Of a DNA stretch of 64,000 nt, positions 1 to 56,744 are shown one piece after another. How positions within the stretch are numbered: the stretch's first letter is position 1; the number at the start of each line of letters is the position of its first letter. The DNA comes from Patescibacteria group bacterium (GTDB lineage Bacteria > Patescibacteriota > JABMPQ01 > JAHIRA01): contig JAHISJ010000013.1 in the NCBI GenBank assembly GCA_018818205.1, positions 16,661-80,660 on the forward strand. Direction: 5' to 3'. The position numbers and the translations under genes were made by a program. The notes beneath the pieces were generated by a model. The model had not been told where the DNA came from. It did no database searches and saw nothing but the letters and a program-made list of their open reading frames with translations.

Positions 1-1
1 T

Positions 2-23276: not shown

Positions 23277-24221
23277 ATGAATGATCATAAGATTTTAGAG
23301 TATTCTGTTGTTGTTCCATTTTACAATGAGCAGGGGAATGTCACTCCTCTTTATTCTGATCTAAAAAAAGTATTTGAAGAAATAAGTGGAGAGTACGAAA
23401 TTATTTTTGTCAATGACGGTTCAATCGACAACACATTGCAGGAAATGAAGGAGCTTAAGCCTCTCAAGATAATCAATTTTAGGAAAAATTTTGGGCAAAC
23501 TGCTGCACTAGATGCGGGTTTCAAAGAAGCGAAAGGAAAGTATATTATTACCTTGGACGGTGACGGGCAAAATCCTCCTTCAGAAATTCCTATACTGATA
23601 TCAAAAATGGAGGAAGGTGGTCTTGATGTTGTCTGTGGGTGGCGGTATAAGCGCAAGGACACTACATTGAAACGAGTTTTTTCACGAGGAGCGTATTTTT
23701 TGAGAGGGTTTTTGGTTAAAGATCATGTGCATGATGCGGGGTGTACGCTTAGATTGTATAAAAAAGAGTGTTTTGATGATTTTGATTTATTCGGGGAGAT
23801 GCACAGGTTCATTCCTGCGGCATTGTATTGGAGAGGTTTTAGGGTAGGTGAAATAAAGGTGTCACACAAACCTCGTGTGCATGGTCTAAGCAAGTACAAT
23901 TGGACACGAGCGCTTAAAGGGTTTATTGACATGATTTCTATTTGGTTTTGGAGAAAGTTCTCTAATCGGCCCCTTCATTTATTTGGAGGCGCAGGAATAT
24001 TTTTTGTTCTTATTGGTGTACTGTTTTTTATTGTTCTTGGTTTGTTAAGACTTTTTCTTGGGTATAGTCTTTCTGACAAGATTTGGCCACTTGTTGCAAC
24101 GTTGCTTATTGTTGTTGGTGTCCAGCTTTTTGTATCAGGAATAATGACCGATATTCTAATTAAGGGCTATTATTCTAACGGAAAGACATCGTATAATATC
24201 AAAGACATTATTGTAAATTAG
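23277..24221 (+). CDS. GT2 polyprenol-phosphate glycosyltransferase (DPM1/GtrB/ArnC-like) with C-terminal TM helices
   Basis: VVVPFYNE...FVNDGSIDNT...TLDGDGQNPP; two C-terminal TM segments. Confidence 0.75.
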   Translation: MNDHKILEYSVVVPFYNEQGNVTPLYSDLKKVFEEISGEYEIIFVNDGSIDNTLQEMKELKPLKIINFRKNFGQTAALDAGFKEAKGKYIITLDGDGQNPPSEIPILISKMEEGGLDVVCGWRYKRKDTTLKRVFSRGAYFLRGFLVKDHVHDAGCTLRLYKKECFDDFDLFGEMHRFIPAALYWRGFRVGEIKVSHKPRVHGLSKYNWTRALKGFIDMISIWFWRKFSNRPLHLFGGAGIFFVLIGVLFFIVLGLLRLFLGYSLSDKIWPLVATLLIVVGVQLFVSGIMTDILIKGYYSNGKTSYNIKDIIVN

Positions 24222-24225
24222 AGGG

Positions 24226-25335
24226 ATGAGGATACTCGTACTCAACCATGAATTTCCCCCTGTCGGAGGCGGTGCGAGCCCGGTTAGTTTTGGTTTAGCT
24301 GAATACTATGCTAAAGCCGGTCATGAAGTATCTGTAGTTACTATGGCATTTTCAGATTTGCCTGAAAAACAGAAAGTAAATGAGAAACTTACTATTTTTA
24401 GGGTGACCCCAGGTAGGAAGCATAAGGAAAAATCTAAAATGAGTGAACACATAACATATATCCAAAGAGGGTATGCGATGTGTAAACATCTGCATCGGGA
24501 GAAACAATTTGATGTATGCCACACGCATTTTGCTTTACCAGGGGGAATCCTTGCCCTACGGTTAAAGAATAAGCTCGGATTACCCTATATTTTGTCAGTG
24601 CATGGTAGTGATGTTCCAGGTCATAATCCAGGCTTTAATACTATCCACACAATAATGAGTTCATTGACCAAGAGGGTTTTCAGCAATGCTCGTAACGTTA
24701 CTTATCCATCAAGAAGCTTGAAGGATATAGTGATAAAGCTATATCCTTCGTTGTCAAATAAAAGTGTCACTATTGCAAATGGATCAAAAGACTATTATCG
24801 GGAGGCTATCAAGGAAGAGAATATTGTTATTTTTGTGGGGAGACTGCAGAATATAAAAAGGGTTGATGTATTGATTGAGGCTTTTAAGAGAGCTAATAAT
24901 TCACATTGGAAACTCTATATTATTGGCGATGGTCCGGAAAAGGAGAATTTGAAGGCTAATTCAGAAGGCAAAGAAAATATCATTTTTACTGGGTGGATGA
25001 GCAATGAAAGTAATGAATATACTGAATTGCTTAACAAGGCTAAGATTTTTTGTTCACTTTCTTCGACTGAATCTCAGGGGATAGCCCTTGTGGAAGCAAT
25101 GAGTGCAGGCTGTGCACTGGTAGTGTCTAATATTGATGCGCATAGAGAGACAACAGACAAAAGCACAGCAGTGTTTATTAATGGCGAGAAAATTGATGAG
25201 GCGCGTAAAGCCATTCAGTGGTTAATAGATAATCCTAGTGAATGTCGAAAGAAGGGAAGTAATGCACGTCAAATGTATAAAGAAAGATTTATTTGGGATA
25301 CTATTTCACCTCGATATTTAGATCTGTTCACTTAG
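24226..25335 (+). CDS. glycosyltransferase family 4
   Basis: STESQGIALVEAMSAGCALV (EX7E). Confidence 0.8.
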   Translation: MRILVLNHEFPPVGGGASPVSFGLAEYYAKAGHEVSVVTMAFSDLPEKQKVNEKLTIFRVTPGRKHKEKSKMSEHITYIQRGYAMCKHLHREKQFDVCHTHFALPGGILALRLKNKLGLPYILSVHGSDVPGHNPGFNTIHTIMSSLTKRVFSNARNVTYPSRSLKDIVIKLYPSLSNKSVTIANGSKDYYREAIKEENIVIFVGRLQNIKRVDVLIEAFKRANNSHWKLYIIGDGPEKENLKANSEGKENIIFTGWMSNESNEYTELLNKAKIFCSLSSTESQGIALVEAMSAGCALVVSNIDAHRETTDKSTAVFINGEKIDEARKAIQWLIDNPSECRKKGSNARQMYKERFIWDTISPRYLDLFT

Positions 25336-25339
25336 TAAT

Positions 25340-27354: not shown

Positions 27355-28119
27355 ATGGTTATCCAGCCGTATCATAAGGATTTATTTTTAGAGCTTCTTA
27401 AGGCAGACTTTAAGGTTCGTTACCAAGGGTCGATTTTGGGTTTTGTCTGGGTATTGCTCAGACCCTTTCTCTTGTTTATGATTTTTTATATTATCTTCTC
27501 GTATATTTTTTCACGAGGGGATAGTCACTTTGCGATTCGATTAATACTAGGACTAATCATTTTTACGTATTTTTCTGAGGCGACAACTCATGGTCTTACC
27601 TCCCTGATAAATAAAGCTGATGTTATTCTAAAGGTGAATTTTCCAAGACAAATTGTTGTTATTTCCTCTATAGTAAATTCTTTACTTACACTCTTTTTTA
27701 GTTTTGTTATTTTTATTGCATTTTGGGTTTTTAATCCAACCTCAGTTTCCGCGCTTTGGCTTTTGTTTCCAGTGTATCTGCTTGTCCTCTCAATTCTTAT
27801 TACTGGACTTTCTTTTTTTCTAAGTGTTCTATCTGTTAAATTCAGAGATATGCAGATGATTTGGGAGCTTTTTATCCAGATCCTTTTTTATGGCAGTGCA
27901 ATTTTTTATCCAATTTCTATATTATCGCCAAAGTTGCAAGAGTATATGTATTGGAATCCTATTTTTGTTATAATTCAGCAATGCAGGGAAATTTTGATAG
28001 ACAACACTATGCCTGATTTAAAGTTTCTTTTTGTTATTTCGCTCGCAAGTGTTGCATTTTTTATTTTGGGATATGTTTATTTCAAACGTAATATTAAGCG
28101 AATAGCAGAATACTTCTAG
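27355..28119 (+). CDS. ABC-2 type polysaccharide export permease (Wzm/TagG-like)
   Basis: 6 TM helices; ABC-2 permease topology; immediately upstream of the ATPase. Confidence 0.8.
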   Translation: MVIQPYHKDLFLELLKADFKVRYQGSILGFVWVLLRPFLLFMIFYIIFSYIFSRGDSHFAIRLILGLIIFTYFSEATTHGLTSLINKADVILKVNFPRQIVVISSIVNSLLTLFFSFVIFIAFWVFNPTSVSALWLLFPVYLLVLSILITGLSFFLSVLSVKFRDMQMIWELFIQILFYGSAIFYPISILSPKLQEYMYWNPIFVIIQQCREILIDNTMPDLKFLFVISLASVAFFILGYVYFKRNIKRIAEYF

Positions 28120-28120
28120 T

Positions 28121-28852
28121 ATGAACGAAGCTATAATACAAGTTAAAAATATTTCTAAGGTTTTTATGATCCCTGAAGAAAACAGGAATACTTTACGGGA
28201 ACATTTTTGGAATTTTTTTCGTCCGATGAAACACAAAAAGTTTCAAGCGCTTGATAATGTTTCTTTTGAAGTGAACAGGGGTGAGTGGCTAGGTATAATA
28301 GGAAGGAACGGTTCAGGGAAGTCGACTCTACTTAAAATTTTAGCTGGGATTTATTTGCCGGATTCAGGAAGGTTTTGTAGAAATGGTTCCCTTGTTCCTT
28401 TCTTGGAGCTTGGTGTTGGTTTCAATTTTGAACTTTCAGCTCGTGAAAATATTTTCTTGAATGGAACAATTCTAGGAATGACTCGAAAAGAAATCAATGC
28501 TGTTTTTGACGCGATTGTAGAGTTTGCTGAGATTAAAGAATTTTTAGACTTGCCTCTTAAAAACTATTCTTCAGGAATGAAGGTGCGTCTTGCATTTGCA
28601 ATAGCTACAAAAGTTGATGCTGACATTTACCTTTTAGACGAGGTAATGGCTGTTGGCGATTACGTTTTTAAGGAGAAATGTACCAGTGTTTTTGAAGAAA
28701 TGAAGGAAAAGGGGAAAACAATTATTTTTGTAAGTCATAGTATGGATGACATTAAAAGGTACTGTGACAAAGCGCTTATAATTAAGAAGGGTGTGCTCGA
28801 TAAATTTGGAGATGCTGATACTATTACTTCCTTATATGAAGTACAAGAGTAG
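28121..28852 (+). CDS. polysaccharide ABC exporter ATP-binding protein (Wzt/TagH-like), short form without a C-terminal carbohydrate-binding domain
   Basis: Walker A GRNGSGKST, signature YSSGM, Walker B IYLLDE; only 243 aa. Confidence 0.85.
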   Translation: MNEAIIQVKNISKVFMIPEENRNTLREHFWNFFRPMKHKKFQALDNVSFEVNRGEWLGIIGRNGSGKSTLLKILAGIYLPDSGRFCRNGSLVPFLELGVGFNFELSARENIFLNGTILGMTRKEINAVFDAIVEFAEIKEFLDLPLKNYSSGMKVRLAFAIATKVDADIYLLDEVMAVGDYVFKEKCTSVFEEMKEKGKTIIFVSHSMDDIKRYCDKALIIKKGVLDKFGDADTITSLYEVQE

Positions 28853-28903: not shown

Positions 28904-31900
28904 ATGAGAAAAGTGAAAACACCTCATTTCGACATGTATCTTTTACCAGGGTTTGAGAGCTATTATTGTGACGATTTTGAACCTCTTTCTGTTTCCATTT
29001 TTAATTCTATAATAAAAAATGGAAATGTTGTTGTTGATGTTGGAGCCCACTTTGGTTATTTTACTTTACTTGCTTCAAAAAAGACTGATCGAGTTTATGC
29101 TATTGAGCCAGTAAAGAAAAATAATGAGGTTTTAAGGCAGAATATTGTACTTAATAACTCTCAAGCAATCGTATTTGATTGTGCAATTTCTGATCGTTTA
29201 GGAAAGAAAAAAATAAATGTAGCTACTTCTTCTGACTGCTCAGGTTTTTATGTGCATCCATTCTCTAAGCCGATTGATCAAGAATTGGTTTCAGTAAAGA
29301 CCCTTGACGATCTTTTCCATAATAAACGTATAGACTTGCTTAAAGTTGATACTGAAGGGAATGAATATAAGGTTCTTATGGGAATGGAAAGTGTATTGCT
29401 GCAAAATTCAAATCTTAAGCTGTTATTTGAGTTTAACCCCAAATGTTTAATATGTGCTGGAGACAAGCCTAGTGTTTTTTTAGAAACACTTAAACAACAT
29501 AATTATTCAATCTTTTTTATAGATGACAAAAGTCAAAAGATTGAAAATTATACGCAGTCTCCTGCTAGATGGTCTGAGATGATAGATGAAGATGCGTGTG
29601 TTAATTTGCTTTGCGTTCGCACAAGTGATCCAGATTACAACAATGTACTTTGCACAATTGATACTATAAAAAGAAAAATAGAAACTGCAAAAACTAGGGC
29701 TCGTAGTATTAGGTTTACTATTGGCATTACTGTATACAATAGAAAAGAGTACTTGGAAGAATGCGTTGAAAGTGCATTATCTCAGACGTATAAACCAGAT
29801 GAAATTATTATTGTTGATGACTTTTCACAAGATAAGGGCGTGATTGATATTCTTGAGAAATATAGGAATCGAGAAAATATCAAACTTATTTATAATAAAG
29901 AGAATTTAGGCATTGCTGGATCTTGGAATACAGTGCTAGATAATATGAGTAGTGAATGGTTGGTCATGCTAGATGGTGATGATGTTCTTGAAAAAAATGC
30001 TCTTGAAGAGATAACAAAGTATATTGCGCTTCACAATGAAATCGAATTTATTTCAACCTTGCATACAATTATTAATAGTAAAGGAGAAACACTCGGGGTT
30101 TTTGATAGGCCCCTAGGTAAAGATCCAAAGAAGTTGATTTTAGAGGGAATGTATTTGTCACATCTTAAAGTTTTTAATAAAATGTGCTTTGAAAAAGTGG
30201 GGAGCTTCAGAGGCAAGATAGCAGTTGACTATGACATGGTAGTAAGGGTTCTGGAAATGTGCAAGATGGGCATGCTTCATAAGTGTTTGTACAAATATCG
30301 TTTTCATGAAGATTCGTGTACCAAGAAAAGAGCTAAAGAACAATATGAAAAAGGATGCAAGATTCTATTGGGCACTTACAAAAGGCAAATGATCGATGAA
30401 AATCTCTATATAGACTCTATCATTGAGCGAGGGGCCCTGGCCCATTCCACAAATCTCGGATTACAGAGTAAAATTACACAGAATATTTACCGTATAAAGG
30501 AATTAACTAGCAAGATTGTACAGGAAACAGCTGAAAAAGAAAGAATAGATGTACTTTATAACAAGGAAGCAAAAAGTCATTCTACAGATCTAAATTCATT
30601 GGAATGGAGACTTGGGTGGTGTATTTGCAATCCGTTGAAAGCAGCAAAAAAAATACCTGTATTCGTTGATTATGTGTATGCTAAACGTAAAAAAGACATT
30701 ATCTGGGCAAAAAATAATCCAATTAGGTGTTGTAAAAAATATTTGAAAGTGCTTGTTTCTAAGGGAAAAACATGTGAAGAAGATTTAGAAAGAAGTATCT
30801 ATGATTCACTTACGTATACCGAAATAAATATTGATAAGTGGTCAGAAGATACGCCGCTTATCAGTGTGATTATCCCTTGCTATAATTATGGAAATTATAT
30901 TAGCGAAGCTTTAAATTCTATTTTTGCACAAACACTTCAAGATTTTGAGGTAATTATTATTGATGATGGGTCAACAGATCCTGGAACAGAGAAGGAGTTA
31001 AAAACGATAAAGCATCCTAAGGTCCAGGTTATTTTTCAAGAGAATTCCGGAGTCTCTAATGCTAGAAACAAGGGAATTAGTAAAGCAAAAGGAAAATATA
31101 TTTGTTGTCTAGATCCGGACGACATTCTTGATCCGACCTATTTTGAAAAATGTTTATTGGTTCTGGAAAGAGATGCACAATTAGGCCTTGCATATTCATG
31201 GGTAAAGGAAATTGGGGCTAGGGATATTTTATGGAAGACTACTGATTTGGATATTGACACATTACTTTCATCAAATCATGTACCAATAAGTGCGATTTTC
31301 AGAAAAGAAATAGCTGATAGCGTGTTCTTTGATCCAGATATTCGTCATGAAGACTGGGATTTTTGGCTTTCCGTTGTGGGAAAAGGGTGGCGTGGAAAAG
31401 TAATTCCCGAAGTTCTTATGTATAGCAAGAGACATGGAAACAATAAATCGTTACAAGATGAGCAATTTTATAAAGAAACACTATTAGCACTGAAAGAAAA
31501 GCATAAAAACCTTTTGAAGAAAGATTTCAGAGAAAAAGTGAAAGAGGAGTACATAAAAAAAATAGCGTTAAATCCTTTTACGAATTTAAATAGATCCGTC
31601 TATCAAGAAAAACACAAGAAAAGAGTGTTTGTTGTTGTTCCATTTTTAATATGTGGAGGAGCGGAGACACTTCTTTATAATTTTGCATCAAAGCTTAAGA
31701 ATGAAGTCGATTTTACTTTTATTTCCGTGATTAAGTCAAAAAATGAATGGGAAGACAGGTTTAAGGGAATTAGCTCTCGAGTGTATCATTTACCCAAACT
31801 TTTTGAAAGTAAAAATGTTTGTGATGATTTTTTACTCAATTATATTCAGACAAGAAATATTGATGTATTGCATTTCTTTCACTGTGGTTATTTTTATGAC

Positions 31901-34825: not shown

Positions 34826-34882
34826 TCTACATATAGGCCAGAATTTAACTATCTGACAATATCCAAATGGAATGAACGTGAA

Positions 34883-37415: not shown

Positions 37416-37419
37416 AAAA

Positions 37420-41936: not shown

Positions 41937-41981
41937 AATCTCCTCCTCTTGAGGTGTAAAAGGGTTCAAAGTTTGCGCTTT

Positions 41982-42010: not shown

Positions 42011-42047
42011 GTCCTTTTGGTAATGTGCACACACATATGGCGGTTTT

Positions 42048-42076
42048 TTGACAGGGTCCAGGAAGTTGAATACAAT
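42048..42076 (+). promoter_or_regulatory. sigma70-consensus promoter TTGACA-17-TACAAT, about 380 nt upstream of the 42456 gene
   Basis: ttgaca 42048-42053; tacaat 42071-42076. Confidence 0.45.
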
Positions 42077-46841: not shown

Positions 46842-47965
46842 GGATTCTTTTTGTTTTAGAATATTATTATCCTAATGTGGGTGGCGTGGAGACGTTGTTT
46901 AAGAATCTCGCCGAAGGTTTAGCTAAGGAAGGACATCATGTTTGTGTGGTAACAAGTAAAATTCAAGCGTCTCCGTTTCGTGAAAAAGTTAACGGAGTAG
47001 AAATAGTTCGAGTGTTTTGTCCTAATATTTTTGATCGACGATACTGGTTTACATTTACTGCTATTCCAAAGGTGTTAGTTTTAGCTAGAAAGTATGATAT
47101 TGTGCACACAACTACCTATAATGCGATAATTCCAGCAAAAATTGCTAGTGTACTACTAGGGAAACCAATAGTGTTAACAGTTCTTGAGGTGATGGATCAT
47201 TTATTCTATAAAATAAACTTATCTAAAGTTTCTGCGTTTTTTCACTGGTGTTTTGAGAGGTTAGTTCTAAGATTTTATTATAGTAAAATTATTGCAATTT
47301 CTGATTTTACCAAGAGTAGGGTAGTAGATTTAGTACAGAAAAAAATGAGGGGTAATGTTGTTAGAGTCTATCATGGATTAGATTATAATAATTTTTGTTT
47401 TGAAAATATTAGAAAGCGAAACCTGAAAAAAGAATTAGGGCTTGATGATCGTTTTGTGTTCTTGTACTTTGGCAGACCTGGTTTTTTAAAGGGCGTAGAT
47501 ATGTTGGTTGATTCGTTTAACCTCTTAAGTAAGACTCACAAAGATGTTTTTTTGTTGCTAATTCTTTCTAAAAAGCCTTTAAAGCAATATAAGAGTATAC
47601 AAAATAAAGTTAATGTATCTGAAAATAAATCTATAAAAATAATTGATTCTGTACCTTATAGTGATCTTCCGTCTTATATACATATGGCGGACAGAGTGGT
47701 TATTCCATCAATTTCAGAAGGGTTTGGATATACTGCGGCAGAAGCATGCACGTTAAAAAAACCAGTAATCGTAAATATCAAAGAGACATCGTTAGGTGAA
47801 GTAGTGGGCGGTGCATACACTCAGGTCATACAAGCAGATATAGATTCACTTTTTGACGCTCTTTTGAAGTCTTGCAGGGGAGAATTTGAGTATGCTGTCC
47901 CAAAACGTTTTGAATGGAAGGATACTATTTTGACGACAATTAAGTTGTATAAGGAAATCATTTGA
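46838..47965 (+). CDS. glycosyltransferase family 4
   Basis: PSISEGFGYTAAEACTLKKPVIV (EX7E). Confidence 0.8.
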   Translation: MRILFVLEYYYPNVGGVETLFKNLAEGLAKEGHHVCVVTSKIQASPFREKVNGVEIVRVFCPNIFDRRYWFTFTAIPKVLVLARKYDIVHTTTYNAIIPAKIASVLLGKPIVLTVLEVMDHLFYKINLSKVSAFFHWCFERLVLRFYYSKIIAISDFTKSRVVDLVQKKMRGNVVRVYHGLDYNNFCFENIRKRNLKKELGLDDRFVFLYFGRPGFLKGVDMLVDSFNLLSKTHKDVFLLLILSKKPLKQYKSIQNKVNVSENKSIKIIDSVPYSDLPSYIHMADRVVIPSISEGFGYTAAEACTLKKPVIVNIKETSLGEVVGGAYTQVIQADIDSLFDALLKSCRGEFEYAVPKRFEWKDTILTTIKLYKEII

Positions 47966-48984
47966 TGAAGATTGCTATTCTTACACCTACTTTATATAAA
48001 TATAGCGGTATAGATAGGGTTGCATATAAGCAAGCTAAAGAATTTGCTGCTCAAGGGAATACTGTAAAATTTATTACTTTTAAATCTGAGATTGAGAGTC
48101 ATGGAAGGAATATTGAAGTAATTGAACTTGGTATGCCGTCCTCGTCTTTTTTTGAACGAGTGTATCGATTATTCTTTTTTTTAGATTATTTCAAAGTAAT
48201 TACCGCAAAAAAAGCAATACACGACTGTCAGAAAATTATTTGTCACTCATATCCTATGAGTGTAATTGCTTGTAAGGTAAAAAAAGAGAGACCACAGATA
48301 AAATATATTTATTATAATCATGGAGTGGCAGAACCTAGCGCATTTGAATCTATAATTGAAAAGGTGTATTTGCGTATTTTTGGTAAACTATCTAACCATT
48401 TTCTCAAAAATGCTGATGAAGTTATTTGTATTAGCAAATATTTACAAAACGTTCTTGAAAATGAAACTGGTATTGGGAGCAAGGTTGTATATAATGAGCT
48501 AGTTCTAGATCATAGTATTAAACCTAAAACAAAAATAAAGAGTAAGTTTGGTATTGGAGAAGACCGTTTTATTCTATTCGTAGGGAGAGTTTCTCCTCAT
48601 AAAGGTGTGCATTTGCTCATTAAGGCATTTAAGTTGGTTCAAGAGAAGGACAAAGATCTTAAATTAGTAATAGTTGGAAAAAATACCTTTGGGAAATATG
48701 CTAAACGGCTTAAAGATATAGCGGCTGATAATGTTATCATTACAGGTTCCGTTTCAGACGAAGAACTTATAGATTTTTATAGGCATTGTAGTTTGTATGC
48801 TACTGCATCACTTTGGGAAGGTTTTGATTTGCCAATTATTGAAGCTCAAAAAGAAGTTAAGCCTATTGTTGCCTTTGATATAGGACCACATTTTGAAATA
48901 GCAGATAAAAATACAATGCTCGTTGAAAAAGGCGATGTACAAGCTTTTGCTCTCGCAATAAATAAAGCACTCAATGAAGAGTAG
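47962..48984 (+). CDS. glycosyltransferase family 4
   Basis: SLWEGFDLPIIEAQKEVKPIVAFD. Confidence 0.8.
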   Translation: MMKIAILTPTLYKYSGIDRVAYKQAKEFAAQGNTVKFITFKSEIESHGRNIEVIELGMPSSSFFERVYRLFFFLDYFKVITAKKAIHDCQKIICHSYPMSVIACKVKKERPQIKYIYYNHGVAEPSAFESIIEKVYLRIFGKLSNHFLKNADEVICISKYLQNVLENETGIGSKVVYNELVLDHSIKPKTKIKSKFGIGEDRFILFVGRVSPHKGVHLLIKAFKLVQEKDKDLKLVIVGKNTFGKYAKRLKDIAADNVIITGSVSDEELIDFYRHCSLYATASLWEGFDLPIIEAQKEVKPIVAFDIGPHFEIADKNTMLVEKGDVQAFALAINKALNEE

Positions 48985-50524
48985 ATTTACAGATAAACTT
49001 ATTTTGCTACTTGTAATTTTTGTAGTTTTTATTGGTATTTTTTCTTTTTATCAAAGTAATCCAAAGTACCTTACTGGTGATGATGCGGCTATTCATTTGA
49101 GCAAAGCTGTTTTTAACGTTAATAAAGCGAGTGTCAATTACATAAATCCTTTTAAGCCTTTTTCTGAAGAACCAGCGTATGGTAATCTTTATATTGATGA
49201 ATTTCCTTTCCATGTTCTGGTTTCTGGGATTATGCTTAGCACAGGAACAGACGTGATTTCGGCAACAAAAGTTGTCATTTTTGTTTTGCAAATTTTTCTT
49301 TTTATTGGTTTGTTTCTTTTTCTTGAATGTATATTCAGAGATAGAATGTTTTCGTTTCTTGCAGCTTTTTTTGCAATGTTTAGTTATTGGATTGCAATTA
49401 TGTATTTTGAAGGAACTTACGCACAAATTATGGGCATGGTGTTTATACCTTTCTACTTATTATTAGTTAACGATTATTTCAATAAAAAAAACAATCCATC
49501 TCTTATTGGCGCAATAGCAATTAATGGGTTGCTTTTTTTCGTTCATCCTTTAACTTTTATTTTTGTATGTGTTCTTAGTTTCTCTTATCTTCTCTATTTT
49601 TTAGTACTTAATAAAAAATACATTGTATTAGCCTTACTTATCATAGCTACTGTTGTTATTCTTATTGTTATTGCTCTTTTTCCAAACTTGCCATATCCTA
49701 AATTCTACTCTGGGAATATTACTGATAACCCAAGTTTTGAGTTAAAAGATTTTTATGGTAAGCTAATTTCAGGCTTGTCGCCATACATTATTTTAGGACT
49801 TTTTGTTGCGGGTATTGTAAGCTCTTTAAAGTCTAAAAAAATAGTATTGATAGCTCTTCTCATATCATATCTTTTTATCTCGAGTGAAACATTCGGAGTT
49901 CCTTTCTTTCCACACCGGTTTAATCCTTATTTCATGGTTCTAGTGATTATTACTGTTTTTTATGGTTTTAAAGAGCTTTTCATAAGAATAAAGAATTATC
50001 GTTTAGCATATTTACTCCTTGTATTGTTTTTTATTGTTATTTCGGTGGGAGTGGTATATTCTTTCCAAGCGGTTAAAGAAGCACATGTCCATTTTTCCAA
50101 AGGACTGAGCCCGGCTATTATTACTGATAATGATTATGCGGCACTATCGTGGATTAAAGAAAATATACCGGGTGATGAAACAATACTGGCGACAAATAAA
50201 TGGGGGTACTTTGTTCCTTCATTGGCAGAGCATACTGTATTACTAGGAGATTCATTCGAATTACACGATGTTGAGAAAAAAGATCTAAAGAACAGACAAG
50301 AGATTGCTCAACAGAATGGACATGCTGTTTTTCGGGAGACTGATTCAAGAGTAAAGGCAGAATTATTACAAAGTATTGGTGTTAAGTATATTTTTGTACC
50401 TGATCAAATGAGAAAATATATCAGTGACTATGCACCATATGAAATCTATAATACTGATTTTGATTCAAAGTATTTTAGTGTTTTTTATAAGAGAGGCGAT
50501 GCAATTGTATATAAGTTGAGGTAA
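48974..50524 (+). CDS. polytopic membrane protein, GT-C-fold glycosyltransferase candidate
   Basis: About 12 TM helices; first-loop acidic motif LTGDDAAIH; C-terminal soluble domain. Confidence 0.5.
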   Translation: MKSRFTDKLILLLVIFVVFIGIFSFYQSNPKYLTGDDAAIHLSKAVFNVNKASVNYINPFKPFSEEPAYGNLYIDEFPFHVLVSGIMLSTGTDVISATKVVIFVLQIFLFIGLFLFLECIFRDRMFSFLAAFFAMFSYWIAIMYFEGTYAQIMGMVFIPFYLLLVNDYFNKKNNPSLIGAIAINGLLFFVHPLTFIFVCVLSFSYLLYFLVLNKKYIVLALLIIATVVILIVIALFPNLPYPKFYSGNITDNPSFELKDFYGKLISGLSPYIILGLFVAGIVSSLKSKKIVLIALLISYLFISSETFGVPFFPHRFNPYFMVLVIITVFYGFKELFIRIKNYRLAYLLLVLFFIVISVGVVYSFQAVKEAHVHFSKGLSPAIITDNDYAALSWIKENIPGDETILATNKWGYFVPSLAEHTVLLGDSFELHDVEKKDLKNRQEIAQQNGHAVFRETDSRVKAELLQSIGVKYIFVPDQMRKYISDYAPYEIYNTDFDSKYFSVFYKRGDAIVYKLR

Positions 50525-50715
50525 TGTCGATAATTTGTATTCTATTAGCTCTTCCGATATGGTTGGTGAAAAACTTTTCACTTTTATTGAATATTGATGG
50601 AGATAATGTCGTTTTTATATCCCTTTTCTTAGGCTTTCCCTTTGAAGTACTTTATTTATATATTTTGCTTGTAGGTGTTAGAAAATTTCTTTTACTATTC
50701 AATGAAAAACACTAG
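50524..50715 (+). CDS. possible small hydrophobic protein (63 aa)
   Basis: Fills the gap between flanking genes; 2 predicted TM helices; no other support. Confidence 0.25.
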   Translation: MSIICILLALPIWLVKNFSLLLNIDGDNVVFISLFLGFPFEVLYLYILLVGVRKFLLLFNEKH

Positions 50716-51655
50716 AATTGGAATAATTATCCTAAACTACAACGGTTTTAAAGACACTGTGGCTTGTGTTAATTCTCTTAAAAAGTCTATAGATACTGAT
50801 TTTGAAATTCTTTTAATTGATAACCATTCAGTAATAGATGAAGCTGCTAAATTAAGAAAAATATTTTCTGAGATAGAATGCATTAGAACACAAAAAAACT
50901 TAGGTTTTGCTGAAGGAAATAATGTAGGTATACGATATTTTTTAAATAAGGATGATATACATGCAATTATGCTTTTAAATAATGATACTGAAGTTAGTGA
51001 CAATCTCATATCAGAAATGAAGGTTGAGGTTGCCGGGGACAAAAAAGTAATGGTTGGGGTTTCTATTTATGCATATAAAGATCATAAAAGATTGGATAGT
51101 CAAGGGGTAGTCTTATATAAATCGTTTTTAGCAAATTCTGCAAAAGAGGATGATCTTTCTTTTGCACCTAATGGGTGTTGTGCATTATTTCATCGAAACT
51201 TTTTTAAGGATATAGCAATTAATAACGAATATTTAGATAAAGACTTCTTTTGTTATGGAGAGGATGTTGACATTGGAATACGAGGCAGACTTTGTGGCTA
51301 CAAATCAAGGATTGTGAAAAGTGCCCAAGTGTTCCATAAGGGTTCTGCTACTGCCATAACTATGTCTGATTTCTCTGTTTTCTATGGTCATCGAAACAAT
51401 GTTTTATATGTTTTTAAGTCAATGCCCCTTTGGTTATTAATAAAGAAGTTACCGTATTTTATTGTTGGCCAAATTGCAACACTTGTTTATTATTTGAAGA
51501 TTAGGCGTCCTACAATTTTCATGAAAGCTAAATGGGATAGCCTAAAATTTCTTCCAAGAATGATTAAAAAAAGAAAGTTTGTCATGAGAAAAAGAGTCAT
51601 TTCTACGAGAGATCTCGAAAGTTATCTAGACAATAAATTATTCCATGCAAGATAA
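50702..51655 (+). CDS. glycosyltransferase family 2
   Basis: IGIIILNYNGFKDTVACVNSL, GFAEGNNVG, LLNNDT; start moved to 50702. Confidence 0.75.
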   Translation: MKNTRIGIIILNYNGFKDTVACVNSLKKSIDTDFEILLIDNHSVIDEAAKLRKIFSEIECIRTQKNLGFAEGNNVGIRYFLNKDDIHAIMLLNNDTEVSDNLISEMKVEVAGDKKVMVGVSIYAYKDHKRLDSQGVVLYKSFLANSAKEDDLSFAPNGCCALFHRNFFKDIAINNEYLDKDFFCYGEDVDIGIRGRLCGYKSRIVKSAQVFHKGSATAITMSDFSVFYGHRNNVLYVFKSMPLWLLIKKLPYFIVGQIATLVYYLKIRRPTIFMKAKWDSLKFLPRMIKKRKFVMRKRVISTRDLESYLDNKLFHAR

Positions 51656-52784
51656 GAAAAGAATTGCCATAGTAAGAGGCACTAAACTTTCCAAAGTAGA
51701 GTGTCAAACATACGAACCTCTTTTAGATGCTTTCGTTATTGATGGTATCGTTGCAAAGCCAAATTCTGTAGATTTTTCCTCAGAGCTGAGCATCGGTATA
51801 AAAGAATTTTTTTCCCCTTCTTATTTTTTTGAGAAGCTTGGGTTTGATGTACAGTATCTTCTGGGTGCTTCAACGGGTTTATCAAATTATGATTTAGTAT
51901 TAACACCTGAACTATCATCGGTAAGTACATGGCATGGAATGAAAGCAAAAGAAAAAAATCCAAAGATGATTATAGCTACTTTGGTATGGGAAAATATTCC
52001 TTTTGTGCATGAAAACTATTCTATTCAAAAGAAGATAAAAAAGCGAGCTCTAAAGGAAGTCGATCATTTTATTGCAGTAACAAAAAGAGCAGAGTTTGCT
52101 TTGCGTAAAGAAGGAGTGTCAAAAGATAAGATTAGCGTTATTCCAGTAGGAATCGATGTCAAAAGATTTATACCCCAAGGCAAAGATACCGCGCTTATGA
52201 GTAAGTATGAGCTAGCCGAAAGCGATTTTGTTATTCTAACTTCAGCAAGAAATGTTTGGGAGAAGGGCATTCAGGACATAATCATTGGCTCATCAAGCCT
52301 GCTAAAAAAACACAAAGAGGCTAAGATTTTAATCCTTGGTGCAGGTCCTTTGCATCAGGCGTATCTGGATCTTTCCGCTCGTCTTGGTATTAAAAATCAG
52401 ATTAGAATTGTTGGTAAAGTTCCATATGATGAGGTTCCAAAATTCTATAATCTTGCTGACATTTTTGCTTTACTTAGTATTCCAGTTCCAAGTTGGCAAG
52501 AACAGTTTGGGATGGTTTTGGTTGAAAATATGTCTTCAGGAAATGCGATCATTACTACAAATACTGGATCTATTCCGGAAGTAGTCGGCGATGCTGCATA
52601 TCTTATAGGTCCTTCAGATCCTTATTTGCTTGGACAGAAAGTTGAATTCCTTCATTCAAATTTGGATGAAAGAATGAGACTTGGAGGGGTCGCTCGGAGG
52701 AGAGCTCTTGAACATTTTTCCCTTGAATTGATCTCTGAAAGATTTAAAGAAATTTTTCAAAAACTTTTATATATCCAACAATGA
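51645..52784 (+). CDS. glycosyltransferase family 4
   Basis: QEQFGMVLVENMSSGNAIITTNTGSIPEVV. Confidence 0.75.
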   Translation: MQDKKRIAIVRGTKLSKVECQTYEPLLDAFVIDGIVAKPNSVDFSSELSIGIKEFFSPSYFFEKLGFDVQYLLGASTGLSNYDLVLTPELSSVSTWHGMKAKEKNPKMIIATLVWENIPFVHENYSIQKKIKKRALKEVDHFIAVTKRAEFALRKEGVSKDKISVIPVGIDVKRFIPQGKDTALMSKYELAESDFVILTSARNVWEKGIQDIIIGSSSLLKKHKEAKILILGAGPLHQAYLDLSARLGIKNQIRIVGKVPYDEVPKFYNLADIFALLSIPVPSWQEQFGMVLVENMSSGNAIITTNTGSIPEVVGDAAYLIGPSDPYLLGQKVEFLHSNLDERMRLGGVARRRALEHFSLELISERFKEIFQKLLYIQQ

Positions 52785-54262
52785 AGGTGAATTTTAAAAG
52801 GATGTTTCAGGTTTTAAGCGTTTTTTTCACTCTTTTGATTCTTGGATATGCCGGGGTCTACACAATCAATTATTTTGGTTTTTTGGGATTTAAGGTAATT
52901 ACGTATAGTCCGGATTATTACTTTCTTAATGGAAATTCTTCTTTAGATGTATCAAAAAGTGGAGGCAAAACGTATTTGGAATTTGTAAAAAATGAGTTAG
53001 ATTTTAATTTGAATAAAAAGTTCAAGGAAGCTTATTTGGAAGTAAAAACTGATATGCCGAATGAAGTTTTTCAGGTCGAGCAGCTCACTGATAAAGGCAA
53101 AGAGATGGATTCAATTATTCTAGGAGGGGAGTATATTTCTAATACTCAGTTTAGAAGAATACAAAATGGCGAAAATATTTTTTATACACTGGACAAAGAT
53201 TTAAATGTGAACGATAAAACATTTTCTGACTTGATTACTGAATCCTTAAAAGGTCAACAGGATATAGCGCTAACACGCCCAATTTCTGAAAATGATATCA
53301 ATTTGATGGCTTACAAACCAAGTGATAAAAAAACATTTTATAATCTTTTTTTACGGGGTCACCATAAGTTATTAGTATATGTAAAAGATGAAGTACTTGA
53401 TTTTGTATTTAATTACTATGATATTAATAGAAAAGAAGGTCCAGATAGATTTAATATTATTTTGAAAAAAAACGGAGTTTTTAAGGGTATTGTTCAGGAA
53501 GATGATCGTGAAATTAAAAATCAACAAAATGTACATATCAGTGTTCCTGACTTGGAAGAAGGTATTTACGAACTTGATATTGATATTAGCGATGATTTAA
53601 TAATCTCTGGCATAGAAACAAGTCAGAGTGAATTCGTGTTTAAGGATAATTTTTTCCCGGTTGAAAATATTGAATATAGTTCTATTCCTCAGATCATAAA
53701 TAATAAGGAATCGTCATTTTTTACTAATTCTGATTTTTTCTGGTTAAAAACGTTGCATGAAAACGGTGTACAAAAGGTTGAGGTGAATAGTCATGTTTTT
53801 GACTTAAAGGAGTATCCAAAAAAATATTTATTTTATGATTATTTAAACTATAGCGAGTGCAATGATTTTAAAGAAGAGAATAGTGTTTTTTGCTTTTTAC
53901 CAAGTAACGATCTAAATGAAATAGTACTTGAAAAGCAAAATGTGTTTTTAGATTTAGATGGTAAATACCTGGCTCTCGGGAACAATGCATTAATTCACGC
54001 TTTAAATTGGCGAGAAATCAACTTTGCTAACTTCAAAGAAGCTAAAACGATCATTACAAAACCATCACAAGGTTTTAGTAAGAACAAAGAGGGATATATT
54101 GTGTGGAATATTTTTAATGTTAATGATGCAGGTAAGCTCAAATATAGATTTAGTTCAGTAGATGAAAAAAGAACTAGGGTGAAAAGCATCCGATTTGTTT
54201 TTTACAATCCTGATTCAATTTTCTATCGTACCTATAAAAAGTTATTCTTGCATGATGAGTAA
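52781..54262 (+). CDS. membrane-anchored protein with large extracytoplasmic domain, unknown function
   Basis: Single N-terminal TM segment, then about 450-aa hydrophilic region. Confidence 0.5.
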   Translation: MKVNFKRMFQVLSVFFTLLILGYAGVYTINYFGFLGFKVITYSPDYYFLNGNSSLDVSKSGGKTYLEFVKNELDFNLNKKFKEAYLEVKTDMPNEVFQVEQLTDKGKEMDSIILGGEYISNTQFRRIQNGENIFYTLDKDLNVNDKTFSDLITESLKGQQDIALTRPISENDINLMAYKPSDKKTFYNLFLRGHHKLLVYVKDEVLDFVFNYYDINRKEGPDRFNIILKKNGVFKGIVQEDDREIKNQQNVHISVPDLEEGIYELDIDISDDLIISGIETSQSEFVFKDNFFPVENIEYSSIPQIINNKESSFFTNSDFFWLKTLHENGVQKVEVNSHVFDLKEYPKKYLFYDYLNYSECNDFKEENSVFCFLPSNDLNEIVLEKQNVFLDLDGKYLALGNNALIHALNWREINFANFKEAKTIITKPSQGFSKNKEGYIVWNIFNVNDAGKLKYRFSSVDEKRTRVKSIRFVFYNPDSIFYRTYKKLFLHDE

Positions 54263-54641
54263 AAAAATATTTTTTAAGAAAATAGTTGATCTAATTGTAT
54301 TTTTATCTTTTGTTCTTCTCGTTTTCTTTGTTTTTATGAATTTCTTTTTTGCTAGTTTTGCGAGCAAAATATTCATTAATAATTTAACAATTGTTGTATT
54401 GGTTCTTTTGGTAATTCAAGCAATAATGTCCTATTTTATTCAAAATAATAGCCAAAGTAAACATTCTCGTGTTTTTGATAGAGCAATGATTTTACTTGTG
54501 TTTCTTACTTGTTTAGTAGTAATAGTAAAATTGTATATCGACCTTGAAACAAAGTTATTCGTGGTTTCACTGGTGTTGGCTTTTGTACTCCTATCTTTTT
54601 TATATGTTAAGGAATTTCATGTTTCTAAAAAAGTACAGTAA
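54252..54641 (+). CDS. small 4-TM membrane protein
   Basis: Start set at 54252; hydrophobicity pattern. Confidence 0.4.
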   Translation: MMSKKIFFKKIVDLIVFLSFVLLVFFVFMNFFFASFASKIFINNLTIVVLVLLVIQAIMSYFIQNNSQSKHSRVFDRAMILLVFLTCLVVIVKLYIDLETKLFVVSLVLAFVLLSFLYVKEFHVSKKVQ

Positions 54642-56142
54642 ACTTTTTTTATTTGGTTTTTTATTACTATTTGTAAGTAGTTTCTATATTACTCAATATA
54701 GAGATTTTTTTGAACCAATAACGACCGATGGTATTAGGGTAGCTCTTGGTGCGGAACGGTTAATAGAAAAAGGTGAAATTCAGCCTGATTATGAGGTTCT
54801 AGGTGGAACTGCGAATGTTGAAGCGCGCGGTTCCTTGTATCCTTTTATACAAATAAATGTAGCTATTCTCTCAGATATCAGTGGGATTTCGACGTATCAT
54901 GCGATTTTTTTGTTTTATTTGATTATTTTTGTTATTTTAGCATTAACGCTCTATATATTATTAGGTCGATTTACAAAGAGTCGAGAGACACAGATTATTT
55001 CCTTCTTATTATCTATTCTATTTTTGCCTCTTTTGCGATCAATACTATTAACTCCTCAAAACTTAATTGGGTATTTGTTGATTGTGACGATTATAAATCT
55101 TCTTTTTTTAGTGCAAGGGAAGAAGTTGCTTCTTCTCCTTTTTATGATTATAGGTTGTATGGCTTTCTACCATCATCTGACTCTCTTTATTGTGCTTATT
55201 TTTTTGTTTGTATACTTGATAACTGGTAAGCATTTTAGCAAACTGTTGGTTTTTTTTGTTATTAGCCTTGCTGCCGTATTCTTGGCAAGTAAGATTTTAT
55301 TAGGGTCATATGATATTCTATTTTTTGTAAAGAGTATTTTTAGTAGTTTTTTCTCTCCATCTGAGCTCGATTATTTCAATTTGAATACACCACTTGATTT
55401 TCCTTATGTACTTGGAATTTACCAGACACTTTTAGGTATTTTTGGAGCGTTAATTTTGGCACTTAGTAGAAAAAAGTTTGTAATGGGTTATCATATAGCT
55501 ATTTCTCTGGGTTTTGTAATATTATTTCTTTCGAATATTTTATTTTTTGGTATTGGATTTCACCCGGATAGATTTTTAAACTATCTTTTTATTCCTCTGG
55601 CACTTTGCATTCCGCTGTGTATTGATTTTATAAAAAATATTTTCTTCGTAAAGCGGCGGCTCATTGCGACTGGACTATGTGCGTTTATTATTATTGTTTC
55701 CTTTGTTCAGAATGTAAGTGTTTCCGCTCATGAGCAAAGTTATTTTGGTGAAACTTTTATTCTTTCAAGGGGAGAGTTAGAAGCTGCTGAATTTCTGAAG
55801 AAAAAAATGAGTGATACTGAAGTTGTACTTATAGCTTCAAGAGAAAGAACTAGGAAGGCGGATTCATATGCACGTTATTTGGGGAATAAAAAGACACTAA
55901 TTTTTGATGAACCTTCTTTAGCTTCTATTCCTCAAAAGAATGAACAAAGTCTTCGGTTTGATATATGGCAAATGACAGTTTTCCCTTCCATTAAAAACTC
56001 AGAAGATTTGTTTAAGAAATATGGTGTTGAATTTTTCTTGTTTCCTGCTGGTTCAAAAGAAAGAATTGCATTTGAAAATTTTTCGTATGTGATAATACTA
56101 TTTGAAAATGAAAATGTTGTTATTTTTGCAAAAAAGAAATAA
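54619..56142 (+). CDS. polytopic membrane protein (about 13 TM helices), GT-C-like or polymerase-like candidate
   Basis: Start set at 54619; first extracytoplasmic loop after TM1; no recognisable soluble domain. Confidence 0.45.
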   Translation: MFLKKYSKLFLFGFLLLFVSSFYITQYRDFFEPITTDGIRVALGAERLIEKGEIQPDYEVLGGTANVEARGSLYPFIQINVAILSDISGISTYHAIFLFYLIIFVILALTLYILLGRFTKSRETQIISFLLSILFLPLLRSILLTPQNLIGYLLIVTIINLLFLVQGKKLLLLLFMIIGCMAFYHHLTLFIVLIFLFVYLITGKHFSKLLVFFVISLAAVFLASKILLGSYDILFFVKSIFSSFFSPSELDYFNLNTPLDFPYVLGIYQTLLGIFGALILALSRKKFVMGYHIAISLGFVILFLSNILFFGIGFHPDRFLNYLFIPLALCIPLCIDFIKNIFFVKRRLIATGLCAFIIIVSFVQNVSVSAHEQSYFGETFILSRGELEAAEFLKKKMSDTEVVLIASRERTRKADSYARYLGNKKTLIFDEPSLASIPQKNEQSLRFDIWQMTVFPSIKNSEDLFKKYGVEFFLFPAGSKERIAFENFSYVIILFENENVVIFAKKK

Positions 56143-56368
56143 AGTATTAAATATTCTCACTCGTTTATTTACTTCATTGCTTTTTTTGCTTGGATTGAGT
56201 ATTATTATTGCTCCTGGAAGCGTACAAGGGAAATGGTTGTTAGGAGATATTTATATTCAAGTTAAAGATGGTTTTTATACTGTATTACCTGCTACTTTTA
56301 TTGTTTTTTATACTAGCTTGCTTGTAGGAATTATTATTGTATTAATCTATAAATATGAAAAAAAGTGA
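56102..56368 (+). CDS. small membrane protein (88 aa)
   Basis: Two TM helices; weak support. Confidence 0.3.
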   Translation: MKMKMLLFLQKRNKVLNILTRLFTSLLFLLGLSIIIAPGSVQGKWLLGDIYIQVKDGFYTVLPATFIVFYTSLLVGIIIVLIYKYEKK

Positions 56369-56744
56369 CTTTTTTTATGACATAGCATTGTACCCTTTAA
56401 CCTTTACTGTTTTTCTTTTTTTTGCTTCAGTTCTATTGTTTAAGTTTGATTTTTTTCAAGGAATTTTAGTCTCTTTGTTTTTTATCCTTTTCCTATATTT
56501 ACCCGGGCTTCTTTTTTTTAAAATTATTTTTGGAACGAAATTTAAAAACCTGAATCTTTTTGCTTTCTCGGTTGTATTTTCTTTGTTAATCGTTCCACCA
56601 ATTGTTTTTTTTACATTAAGGACAGGATTGCTATTTAATCTCCTTAACTCTGTGTTAATCATAGGTGTTGTTTTGTTTTTAGAATCAGTTATTTTGATAA
56701 TAAAGAATGTCAGAGCAAAGAAGAAAATTAAAAGTCGGGATTGA
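56355..56744 (+). CDS. small 4-TM membrane protein (GtrA-like size and topology)
   Basis: 129 aa, four hydrophobic segments. Confidence 0.4.
   Translation: MKKSDFFYDIALYPLTFTVFLFFASVLLFKFDFFQGILVSLFFILFLYLPGLLFFKIIFGTKFKNLNLFAFSVVFSLLIVPPIVFFTLRTGLLFNLLNSVLIIGVVLFLESVILIIKNVRAKKKIKSRD

Follow-up and report, generated by a model that had tools for sequence, protein, structure and literature searches.

How might a bacterium of the Patescibacteria, the tiny and mostly episymbiotic members of the candidate phyla radiation (CPR), build and vary its outer surface? The surface chemistry of these organisms is almost unknown, yet host attachment and phage recognition depend on the surface. The question is raised by a 64-kb stretch of DNA (the window) in the 82,950-bp metagenome contig k141_365028 (ENA ERZ27247128), in which nearly all genes belong to glycan synthesis by Pfam and NCBIfam; NCBI names the window proteins 'Patescibacteria group bacterium', with locus tags KKH43_.... 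A first-pass annotation, made from the DNA letters only, had proposed that the window carries repeated sets of a polyprenol-phosphate sugar synthase of the GT2 type, a membrane protein of small size plus a polytopic GT-C-like enzyme, implying extensive glycosylation outside the cytoplasmic membrane. All genes named there are present on the plus strand at positions within a few codons of those it gave, and judged by their profile matches the gene assignments are supported by hidden Markov models and are not chance patterns. The window is probably a glycan 'super-locus' of more than 60 kb in which genes for polymer assembly in the cytoplasm stand beside several multi-component modules for transmembrane glycosylation. 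At least 64 kb of mostly glycan synthesis, with three synthases and four GT-C genes, points to a heavily and variably decorated surface.

Glycosyltransferases of the GtrB/ArnC/PpgS type use a nucleotide sugar to place a single sugar residue on polyprenol (undecaprenyl) phosphate (Und-P). Three DPM1/GtrB-like lipid-phosphate sugar synthases had been picked out by the first-pass annotation, and all three are real, with NCBIfam matches to PgfS, ArnC or PpgS at E-values from 1e-27 to 3e-68 and phmmer matches down to 3e-53. Synthase 23277 (genes are named by their start positions and lie on the plus strand unless stated otherwise; 23277..24221, 314 residues) is of the GtrB/ArnC/PgfS type, and synthase 35515 (35515..36492, 325 residues; the longest open reading frame (ORF) of this gene begins at a TTG at 35485) is of the ArnC/GtrB type. 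Both match the NCBIfam models from end to end (23277: PgfS 7e-43, ArnC 2e-42; 35515: PgfS 3e-68, ArnC 7e-58); the matches lie below the equivalog cut-offs, and the models therefore do not fix the sugar specificity. Among E. coli proteins, phmmer paired 35515 with ArnC (5e-50) and GtrB (YfdH; 3e-53), and 23277 with the same two (5e-38 and 3e-26, respectively). Two C-terminal transmembrane (TM) helices, as in GtrB, are found in both. The third synthase, 45842 (45842..46513, 223 residues), has no TM helix and is of the PpgS/GacI/AglJ type, its best NCBIfam matches being PpgS (1e-27) and AglJ (2e-24). The DxD motifs are intact in all three enzymes, which are distinct from the other GT2 proteins of the window, since these score at most 25 bits against ArnC/GtrB (1800 and 58959) or go undetected by phmmer (25340 and 50702).

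The first-pass annotation had further counted at least four GT-C-like proteins with an acidic first loop. Each of the four polytopic proteins has a basic N-terminus, a first TM helix (TM1) and then an acidic motif, with a conserved Asp just past TM1 on the outer face; the lines of evidence for the GT-C assignment differ, being a fold match for 54619, a profile alignment for 48974, both kinds at a probable level for 42456 and a Pfam GtrII match for 38549. Protein 54619 (54619..56142, ~10 TM, motif TTDGIR) matched nothing in Pfam or NCBIfam, and a word-indexed search returned only 54619 itself. An exhaustive HMMER search retrieved 30 distant relatives, whose alignment has invariant D37, H185 and R318, with D37, in the TTDGIR motif, unchanged in 29 relatives; the family comprises ~30 cluster representatives among 1.8 billion proteins. 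An AlphaFold2 model built with the family alignment as input scored a pLDDT of 86.2 and a pTM of 0.87, and when it was compared with the PDB by Foldseek all 27 of the 27 matches at E <1e-3 were GT-C structures (E 1.5e-7 to 2.8e-4, TM-score ~0.5-0.65), namely STT3, ALG12, DPY19, AftA, PglB, AftD, ArnT, AglB and ALG9. No transporter, Wzy, WaaL or SEDS structure was among these PDB matches, nor any transporter or Wzy at E <1. On this model, 54619 would be a GT-C enzyme of a family previously without Pfam or NCBIfam annotation. Two of its relatives match PMT_2, and two family members match EpsG weakly.

Protein 48974 (48974..50524, 10 TM, motif TGDDAA) matches Pfam DUF6541 (PF20176; 4.7e-11, 42.1 bits with the cut-off at 29, covering positions 99-644 of the 646 in the model), with an additional weak PTPS_related match. 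Aligned to the 54619 family profile by hhalign it reached 99.85% (E 9e-31, 475 columns), and the alignment places the first D of GDD on D37, HPLTF on H185 and PHRF on R318. The likeness is not an artefact of hydrophobicity, because the 54619 profile scored <1% in hhalign against the unrelated polytopic Wzx, Wzy_C and ABC-2 permease proteins of the window. Protein 48974 is thus predicted to be a distant paralogue of 54619 and a GT-C enzyme. PDB sequence searches with 48974, 38549 and the family profiles returned only noise, and the fold was therefore taken from modelling.

The largest of the four, 42456 (42456..45845), has 1129 residues, or 1148 if translation begins at the first ATG, at 42399, and consists of an N-terminal 10-TM domain, with the motif EGDAYQ after TM1, followed by ~700 extracytoplasmic residues. 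The N-terminal domain (465 residues analysed) has ten relatives of ~720-1000 residues, in which D42 is nearly invariant within a GDxxQ motif past TM1. The family profile aligned with that of the 54619 family at 98.4% (hhalign, E 4.5e-15), and the best fold matches of the 42456 model were STT3, AglB, ArnT, DPY19 and AftA, with probabilities of ~0.9-1.0. The fold-assignment check that had been suggested for the polytopic proteins, run on 54619 and 42456, thus returned GT-C structures as best matches in both cases, neither transporter nor Wzy, and the N-domain of 42456 is a probable GT-C domain. NCBI labels the product 'YfhO family protein', but the N-domain has no significant match to Pfam YfhO (PF09586; E 5.7, 5.6 bits). 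PF19830 (DUF6311) is listed for the family in precomputed tables (P0004, P0005, P0037, P0038), whereas none of the 11 family members had a Pfam match in the scan; PF19830 is apparently absent or retired from the scanned copy, and the mismatch is a discrepancy between resources, not biology. The protein has ~400 extra C-terminal residues relative to nearly all of its relatives (most have 717-785 residues; the distant P0041 has 995), and this C-terminal region (43850-45845) has no Pfam or NCBIfam match and is unlike the other ectodomains of the window. On a Moranbacteria contig (ERZ28564009, positions 1-8184), a relative of 42456 follows three consecutive PMT/PMT_2 genes and adjoins a Wzx flippase gene; runs of GT-C genes in tandem seem to be a recurring feature of CPR genomes.

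Protein 38549 (38549..40015, ~11 TM by its TM map, motif AIDDYSY) matches the Pfam family Glucos_trans_II (GtrII, PF14264) at 3e-23, with 82.9 bits against a cut-off of 30 over positions 2-306 of 317. The literature places serotype-specific Gtr enzymes among the GT-C proteins, and by its Pfam match 38549 would be the GT-C-type transferase of its module. Searches of genome and metagenome contigs returned no relative of 38549.

The small 4-TM proteins that had been noted beside these genes proved to be a mixed group. The 123-residue 36592 (36592..36963) is a 4-TM protein of the SMR/EamA type and indeed ArnE/ArnF-like: NCBIfam matches ArnF (6e-14; 52.6 bits, under the cut-off of 99) and ArnE (6e-7), phmmer gave 6.5e-7 (ArnF) and 3.7e-5 (ArnE), and hhalign against E. 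coli ArnE/ArnF gave probabilities of 91/88. It is a candidate flippase for an Und-P-sugar. Protein 46506 (46506..46841) belongs to DUF2304, the GacJ/Rv3632 family, as proposed (Pfam 5e-19; 69 bits against a cut-off of 25.5), with ~3 TM helices, not 4. For GacI/GacJ and PpgS/Rv3632, experiments showed a complex in which the DUF2304 protein stimulates the synthase, and the two genes as a rule lie side by side or form a fusion; by analogy, 46506 is the predicted activating partner of 45842. The remaining two, 54255 (54252/54255..54641) and 56355 (56355..56744), are 4-TM ORFs without a family match, and nothing in Pfam matched them even at E = 10. That they are homologues of GtrA, ArnE or DUF2304 proteins was rejected, as phmmer found nothing and hhalign gave <1% against E. 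coli GtrA (YfdG), ArnE and ArnF as well as 36592 and 46506. The one functional hint for the pair is a sub-threshold EamA match (E 0.006) of an orthologue of 56355 on another contig.

The synthases, small proteins and GT-C enzymes form only two complete and contiguous sets, 35515-36592-38549 and 45842-46506-48974, the latter with 42456 upstream, and not four equal triads; synthase 23277 is an orphan, and a cassette around 54619 lacks a synthase. The first contiguous set, module 2, runs from synthase 35515 through the SMR protein 36592, a methyltransferase remnant and the aminotransferase 37420 to the GtrII protein 38549, which overlaps 37420 by 20 nt. The remnant (36960..37420) is the frameshifted N-terminal part of a class I methyltransferase dependent on S-adenosylmethionine (VLEIGAGTG), and in related cassettes its slot is taken by a GNAT protein, a hexapeptide acyltransferase, WbqC or a sulfotransferase. 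Aminotransferase 37420 (37420..38568) is a WecE-type dTDP-4-amino-4,6-dideoxyhexose transaminase, scoring 629 bits against NF008687 (cut-off 375) and 626 bits against TIGR02379 (cut-off 435); RmlA and RmlB, the makers of its substrate, are encoded upstream. The possibility that module 2 is a true Arn pathway was rejected, since 37420 falls short of the equivalog cut-off for ArnB (203 bits where 631 are required) and nothing in the module matches ArnA, ArnD or ArnT.

As the search with 38549 gave no relatives, the co-occurrence of the module-2 genes was measured through the aminotransferase, whose 80 closest relatives in GTDB genomes were examined. These are 61-67% identical to 37420 and derive mostly from Clostridia/Lachnospiraceae and some Bacillaceae, with one metagenome-assembled genome (MAG) of the Campylobacterota and one of the Peregrinibacteria also among them; an identity this high to Clostridia/Lachnospiraceae and Bacillaceae proteins is unusual for a CPR gene. 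Of the 80 loci, 59 encoded a GtrB/ArnC-type GT2 with a C-terminal TM within 6 kb of the aminotransferase, at a median distance of 3.1 kb from centre to centre; 50 loci additionally encoded a protein of at least 400 residues with at least 8 TM helices, and a detectable SMR homologue was present in 25. The Campylobacterota MAG has a GT2 (361 bits), an SMR protein (83 bits), the aminotransferase and a 592-residue 10-TM protein in the same order as the window. Salibacterium has a GT2, GNAT, SMR, aminotransferase and DUF6044; Cytobacillus has PMT_2, GT2, a hexapeptide acyltransferase, WbqC, SMR and aminotransferase; the Peregrinibacteria MAG has PMT_2, GT2, a sulfotransferase, SMR and aminotransferase; and an uncultured Lachnospiraceae MAG has YfhO and the aminotransferase, then two SMR genes and a GT2. 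The linkage of this aminotransferase clade to a polyprenol-phosphate synthase, an SMR protein and a variable GT-C protein is recurrent among these loci, which supports, and does not prove, an Arn-like reading in which the amino sugar itself is placed on Und-P. The E. coli wecE locus for enterobacterial common antigen is not known to contain such a GT2.

These cassettes invite a bolder interpretation, which we hold as tentative: module 2 would represent a widespread, undescribed Arn-like pathway and a new class of lipid-linked amino-sugar donor, with the cassette around 54619 possibly a new multi-subunit GT-C machine. The dTDP-4-amino-4,6-dideoxyhexose would be variably N-acylated, sulfated or methylated and loaded on Und-P by the ArnC/GtrB-type GT2, the SMR protein would flip the product, and interchangeable GT-C enzymes (GtrII, PMT_2, YfhO, DUF6044) would transfer the sugar onto wall polymers. 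The pathway would be common in Clostridia and Bacilli and would have been gained horizontally by CPR bacteria; the sequence identity of 37420 to proteins from these groups suggests that module 2 was, at least in part, acquired by horizontal transfer. A literature search found no description of a WecE-linked Und-P pathway or of three-component systems in the CPR.

Module 3 is an overlapping operon of 42456, synthase 45842, the DUF2304 protein 46506, two GT4 genes and 48974; the stop codon of 42456 overlaps the start of 45842, and 45842 and 46506 overlap by 8 nt. The two GT4 proteins (46838..48984) are cytoplasmic. Further downstream lies the 54619 cassette, composed of a GT4 gene, 52781, 54255, 54619, 56108, 56355 and another GT4 gene. 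Protein 52781 (52781..54262) is a single-pass membrane protein with a ~460-residue ectodomain and no family match, 56108 (56108..56368) is an 86-residue protein with 2 TM helices, and two GT4 genes (56707..58969) close the cassette. The same seven-gene order surrounds a protein 33% identical to 54619 on another contig (L010/L011, either from a different genome or a paralogous copy). Clear orthology holds for five of the six neighbours there (48%, 31%, 40%, 39% and 28% identity), among them the counterparts of 52781 (31%), 56108 (40%) and 56355 (39%). The counterpart of 54255 is alike only in position, size and topology, with a non-significant BLAST identity of ~24% over 55 residues and 26% over the full length in a MAFFT alignment. 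From their conserved positions, the small proteins are conserved parts of a GT-C cassette, and the cassette may be a new multi-subunit GT-C machine in which three small membrane proteins and a single-pass protein with an ectodomain accompany the GT-C enzyme.

The combined results suggest a three-step model for the modules. Each synthase would make an Und-P-monosaccharide at the inner leaflet, the product would be flipped across the membrane by a small flippase of the GtrA or SMR type or by one of the Wzx type, and, on the outer side of the membrane, a GT-C enzyme would attach the sugar to a completed polymer or perhaps to a protein. In module 2, RmlA and RmlB would give dTDP-4-keto-6-deoxyglucose, from which 37420 would make dTDP-4-amino-4,6-dideoxyhexose; 35515 would load the amino sugar on Und-P, 36592 would flip it and 38549 would transfer it. 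In module 3, the TM-less 45842 would be activated by its DUF2304 partner 46506, and the product could be used by the two GT-C enzymes of the same operon, 42456 and 48974. For synthase 23277 and the 54619 cassette, pairing in trans is presumed, as there are precedents in Listeria, where GttA serves both GtlB and GttB, and in L. lactis, where CflA serves three pairs. Rhamnose-precursor genes, an ABC exporter and a multidomain glycosyltransferase, a combination typical of clusters for rhamnose-rich wall polysaccharides, make decoration of a polysaccharide the most likely role of the modules by analogy.

The extracytoplasmic glycosylation that had been proposed is thereby supported, and the analogy drawn to the Gtr and CsbB/YfhO systems, like that to GacIJKL, matches published precedents. 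The closest relative of module 3 in logic is the GacI/GacJ/GacK/GacL system, which adds the N-acetylglucosamine side chain of the group A carbohydrate of S. pyogenes, together with PpgS/Rv3632 of M. tuberculosis: the same TM-less or weakly membrane-bound polyprenol-phosphate-sugar GT2 is immediately followed by a DUF2304 gene, and, as in the Gac cluster, GT-C enzymes are encoded in the same cluster, beside a rhamnose/ABC-exporter backbone pathway and with a Wzx-type flippase near. In contrast to these systems, the PpgS model gives 45842 no more than 97 bits (cut-off 370), two GT-C genes flank a single synthase pair, and these GT-C proteins are DUF6311/YfhO-like and DUF6541, not PMT_2 as GacL. 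Module 2 recalls the Arn (Pmr) system, in which ArnB, ArnC, ArnA, ArnD, ArnT and ArnE/F place 4-amino-4-deoxy-L-arabinose on lipid A, as an aminotransferase, an ArnC-type glycosyltransferase, an SMR protein and a GT-C protein are likewise encoded together. However, the aminotransferase is of the WecE and not the ArnB type, E. coli ArnA and ArnD matched none of the module-2 proteins in phmmer, E. coli ArnT matched no window protein, and in a monoderm-type CPR host lipid A is presumably not the acceptor; 18929, outside module 2, resembles the ArnA C-domain (95 bits against a cut-off of 777). The same three-step logic applies to GtrA/GtrB/Gtr(type) glucosylation of O-antigen by Shigella and Salmonella phages, to which 35515 is tied by its GtrB likeness and 38549 by its Pfam family, but the window has no GtrA-family protein, 38549 has no detectable similarity to YfdI, and an aminotransferase is embedded in module 2.

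Low mutual similarity of GT-C proteins, shared flippases or donors, additional extracellular domains on some large GT-C enzymes and several GT-A/GT-C pairs in one organism are also features of CsbB/GtcA/YfhO and of the L. lactis CsdAB, CsdCD and CsdEF pairs with CflA, which act on lipoteichoic acid, wall teichoic acid, rhamnan and pellicle. In those systems the genes are scattered, whereas four GT-C and three synthase genes are here packed in one 35-kb stretch, and 42456 is of the 'YfhO family' only nominally. Precedents from L. lactis, B. subtilis, Listeria, the S. aureus YfhO system and AftD include several GT-A/GT-C pairs per organism, flippases that more than one pair uses, GT-C enzymes without Pfam domains and large GT-C proteins with extra extracellular domains. 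The pentofuranose system of Citrobacter youngae (ORF15/ORF14/ORF12, GT136) likewise has a GT-C enzyme and a small EmrE/ArnE-like 4-TM flippase candidate, and it modifies a polymer exported by an ABC transporter after polymerisation; its donor is made from phosphoribosyl pyrophosphate by a UbiA-type synthase, unlike the GT2 acting on a nucleotide sugar here. The mechanism is already well known, and it is the annotation and the leads that are new, not the principle: a GT-C fold is assigned to a family without annotation, and two cassettes are recognised, one of seven genes that is conserved and one, WecE-linked and Arn-like, that is widespread. The two conserved cassettes are testable in tractable Firmicutes.

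Several observations weigh against such a system of modules. Synthase 23277 has no small membrane protein or GT-C gene adjoining it and is placed between a GDP-mannose dehydratase gene and cytoplasmic GT4/GT2 genes, upstream of an ABC exporter; the 54619 cassette comes without a synthase gene, and the two are not physically paired. No GtrA-family protein was found in the window (by Pfam, by phmmer, or by hhalign on the small proteins), and a single module, module 2, carries its own SMR candidate. The GT-C assignments are uneven, as, apart from a weak match in the core, 38549 has nothing detectable in common with ArnT, YfdI or the remaining GT-C genes (hhalign against ArnT, 0.5%), the single-sequence hhalign of 42456 against the 54619 family is weak (34%), and the model of its N-domain is of moderate quality (pLDDT 62, pTM 0.70). 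The product of the aminotransferase might just be used by a cytoplasmic glycosyltransferase, activity of some modules may be lost in a locus that shows decay (an IS200 transposase, two truncated genes and the methyltransferase remnant), and the sugars, lipid carrier and acceptors are all inferred.

Decoration of a polysaccharide is not the only use to which the same Und-P-sugar donors could be put. Some or all of the GT-C enzymes might instead glycosylate proteins such as pilins, S-layer or secreted proteins, in the manner of actinobacterial PMT or of PgfS/PgfM1/PgfM2 in S. mutans, a possibility that we take seriously and yet consider the less likely one. In NCBIfam, both 23277 and 35515 are best matched by PgfS, which is the synthase in a system for O-glycosylation of proteins, and large secreted proteins are encoded within the locus itself (5806-8928 and 40056-42101), but these are not Ser/Thr-rich (0.10-0.15). 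PMT_2 matches among the relatives of 54619 and the three PMT/PMT_2 genes beside the Moranbacteria relative of 42456 point the same way, although PMT_2 matches mark the general GT-C core only. The modules are, moreover, embedded among backbone GT2/GT4 genes, an ABC exporter and Wzx/Wzy_C genes, which is the arrangement of polysaccharide-decorating systems.

It is rather unlikely that the 54619 cassette, and perhaps 48974, serves as an en-bloc transferase, that is, an oligosaccharyltransferase, ligase or polymerase for an oligosaccharide on undecaprenyl pyrophosphate (Und-PP) built by the flanking GT4/GT2 enzymes. The lack of a synthase, the GT4 genes on both sides, the retention of this arrangement in L010/L011, the place of STT3, PglB and AglB among the best fold matches and the weak EpsG matches of two family members would all fit. 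However, users of Und-P- or Dol-P-monosaccharides (ArnT, ALG12, ALG9, DPY19, AftA, AftD) are equally among the top matches with similar TM-scores, no WWDYG-type motif is visible in the C-terminal domain of 54619, no Wzy, WaaL or SEDS structure was matched, and three synthases for four GT-C genes leave donors available in trans.

Less probable still is that the locus is a partly decaying, horizontally acquired mosaic with several modules no longer functional. An IS200 transposase between a truncated dehydratase gene and a GT4 fragment, the methyltransferase remnant at 36960-37420, a fall in GC content from 0.40 to 0.32, an opposite-strand island of 0.41 GC and the clostridial likeness of the aminotransferase are in line with this explanation, but the three synthases, the SMR and DUF2304 proteins, the aminotransferase and the four GT-C proteins are intact full-length ORFs that keep the DxD motifs and the first-loop Asp, and the genes overlap as in translationally coupled operons. 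Finally, the contrary outcome named in the first-pass annotation, under which the polytopic proteins would be transporters or polymerases like Wzy and the small ones unrelated membrane proteins, can be dismissed for the polytopic proteins as exceedingly improbable and would apply to no more than two of the small ones, since no link of 54255 and 56355 to GtrA, ArnE or DUF2304 was detected but 36592 is ArnE/F-like and 46506 a DUF2304 member, and since the matches of the weaker 42456 model to the major facilitator superfamily stand far down the list (probability <=0.13, TM-score ~0.1-0.2, against ~0.9-1.0 for GT-C), the 54619 model has no transporter or Wzy match at E <1 and the 54619 family profile stays at <1% in hhalign against the Wzx, Wzy_C and ABC2 proteins of the window.

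Around the modules, the window encodes, by homology, sugar-nucleotide enzymes for dTDP-, GDP- and UDP-sugars. A block at 10433..14458 comprises an RmlC-like protein, a HIT-domain protein, RmlB, RmlD and the long form of RmlA (above the NCBIfam cut-offs for rmlB, rmlD and rmlA_long) and is predicted to supply dTDP-4-keto-6-deoxyglucose and dTDP-rhamnose. It is followed at 16766..23231 by genes assigned from Pfam and NCBIfam to a GalE-like epimerase, MetK, a UXS/ArnA-C-like protein, a UDP-glucose 6-dehydrogenase, an epimerase and a GDP-mannose 4,6-dehydratase (gmd, 428 bits against a cut-off of 415). The MetK gene (17724-18932) and a gene for a KilA-N domain protein (15991-16797) both lie inside the sugar-nucleotide gene region; the KilA-N domain is typical of mobile elements.

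Polymer assembly and export are represented by a Wzm/Wzt-type (TagG/TagH-like) ATP-binding cassette (ABC) exporter for a lipid-linked polymer (27355..28852; ABC2_membrane and ABC_tran, with TagH/Wzt NCBIfam matches of 3e-62 to 2e-53) and by a cytoplasmic 1273-residue protein with an FkbM methyltransferase, two GT2 and one GT4 domain (28904..32725), which from its domain matches is likely the backbone polymerase. A 13-TM protein resembling Wzy_C or O-antigen ligases (312..1790; Pfam Wzy_C 4e-17) is a possible polymerase or ligase for an Und-PP-linked glycan. Cytoplasmic GT2 and GT4 proteins are encoded at 50702..52784, and a Wzx-type flippase (Polysacc_synt_3, Pfam 4.5e-80) on the minus strand at 59902..61380 could, by analogy with GacK, be a possible alternative flippase.

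The GC content of the window falls from ~0.40 to ~0.32 near 24 kb. Between the multidomain glycosyltransferase and module 2, a decayed segment (33581..35467) contains a truncated PglF/CapD-like dehydratase gene (253 residues, covering the first third of Polysacc_synt_2 only), a Y1 transposase of the IS200/IS605 type (34347-34790), followed by a GC-rich hairpin at 34795-34819, and a 194-residue C-terminal GT4 fragment; the transposase between two gene fragments suggests rearrangement or decay within the locus. Modules 2 and 3 are separated by a minus-strand gene (40056-42101) in an island of 0.41 GC that splits the 0.32 GC plus-strand genes, and its product is a secreted protein of 681 residues that has 47 cysteines, contains five 'Cu-binding' repeats of the MopE type and carries a LamG domain at its C-terminus. 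Another minus-strand gene (5806-8928), amid glycosyltransferase genes, encodes a protein of 1040 residues, either single-pass or secreted, that has FG-GAP repeats and regions resembling lectins or glycosidases.

A scan of the window for promoters and terminators gave counts not above those of shuffled sequence, and BLAST of the window ectodomains and C-terminal regions against each other revealed no relation. Two more single-pass proteins whose extracytoplasmic domains are large and which belong to no assigned family are encoded at 14427-15872 and 61598-62452 (minus strand), and they resemble 52781 in architecture and not in sequence; 14427 has repeated 'G.LIRS.KG.(V/I)Y.I' segments close to its C-terminus.

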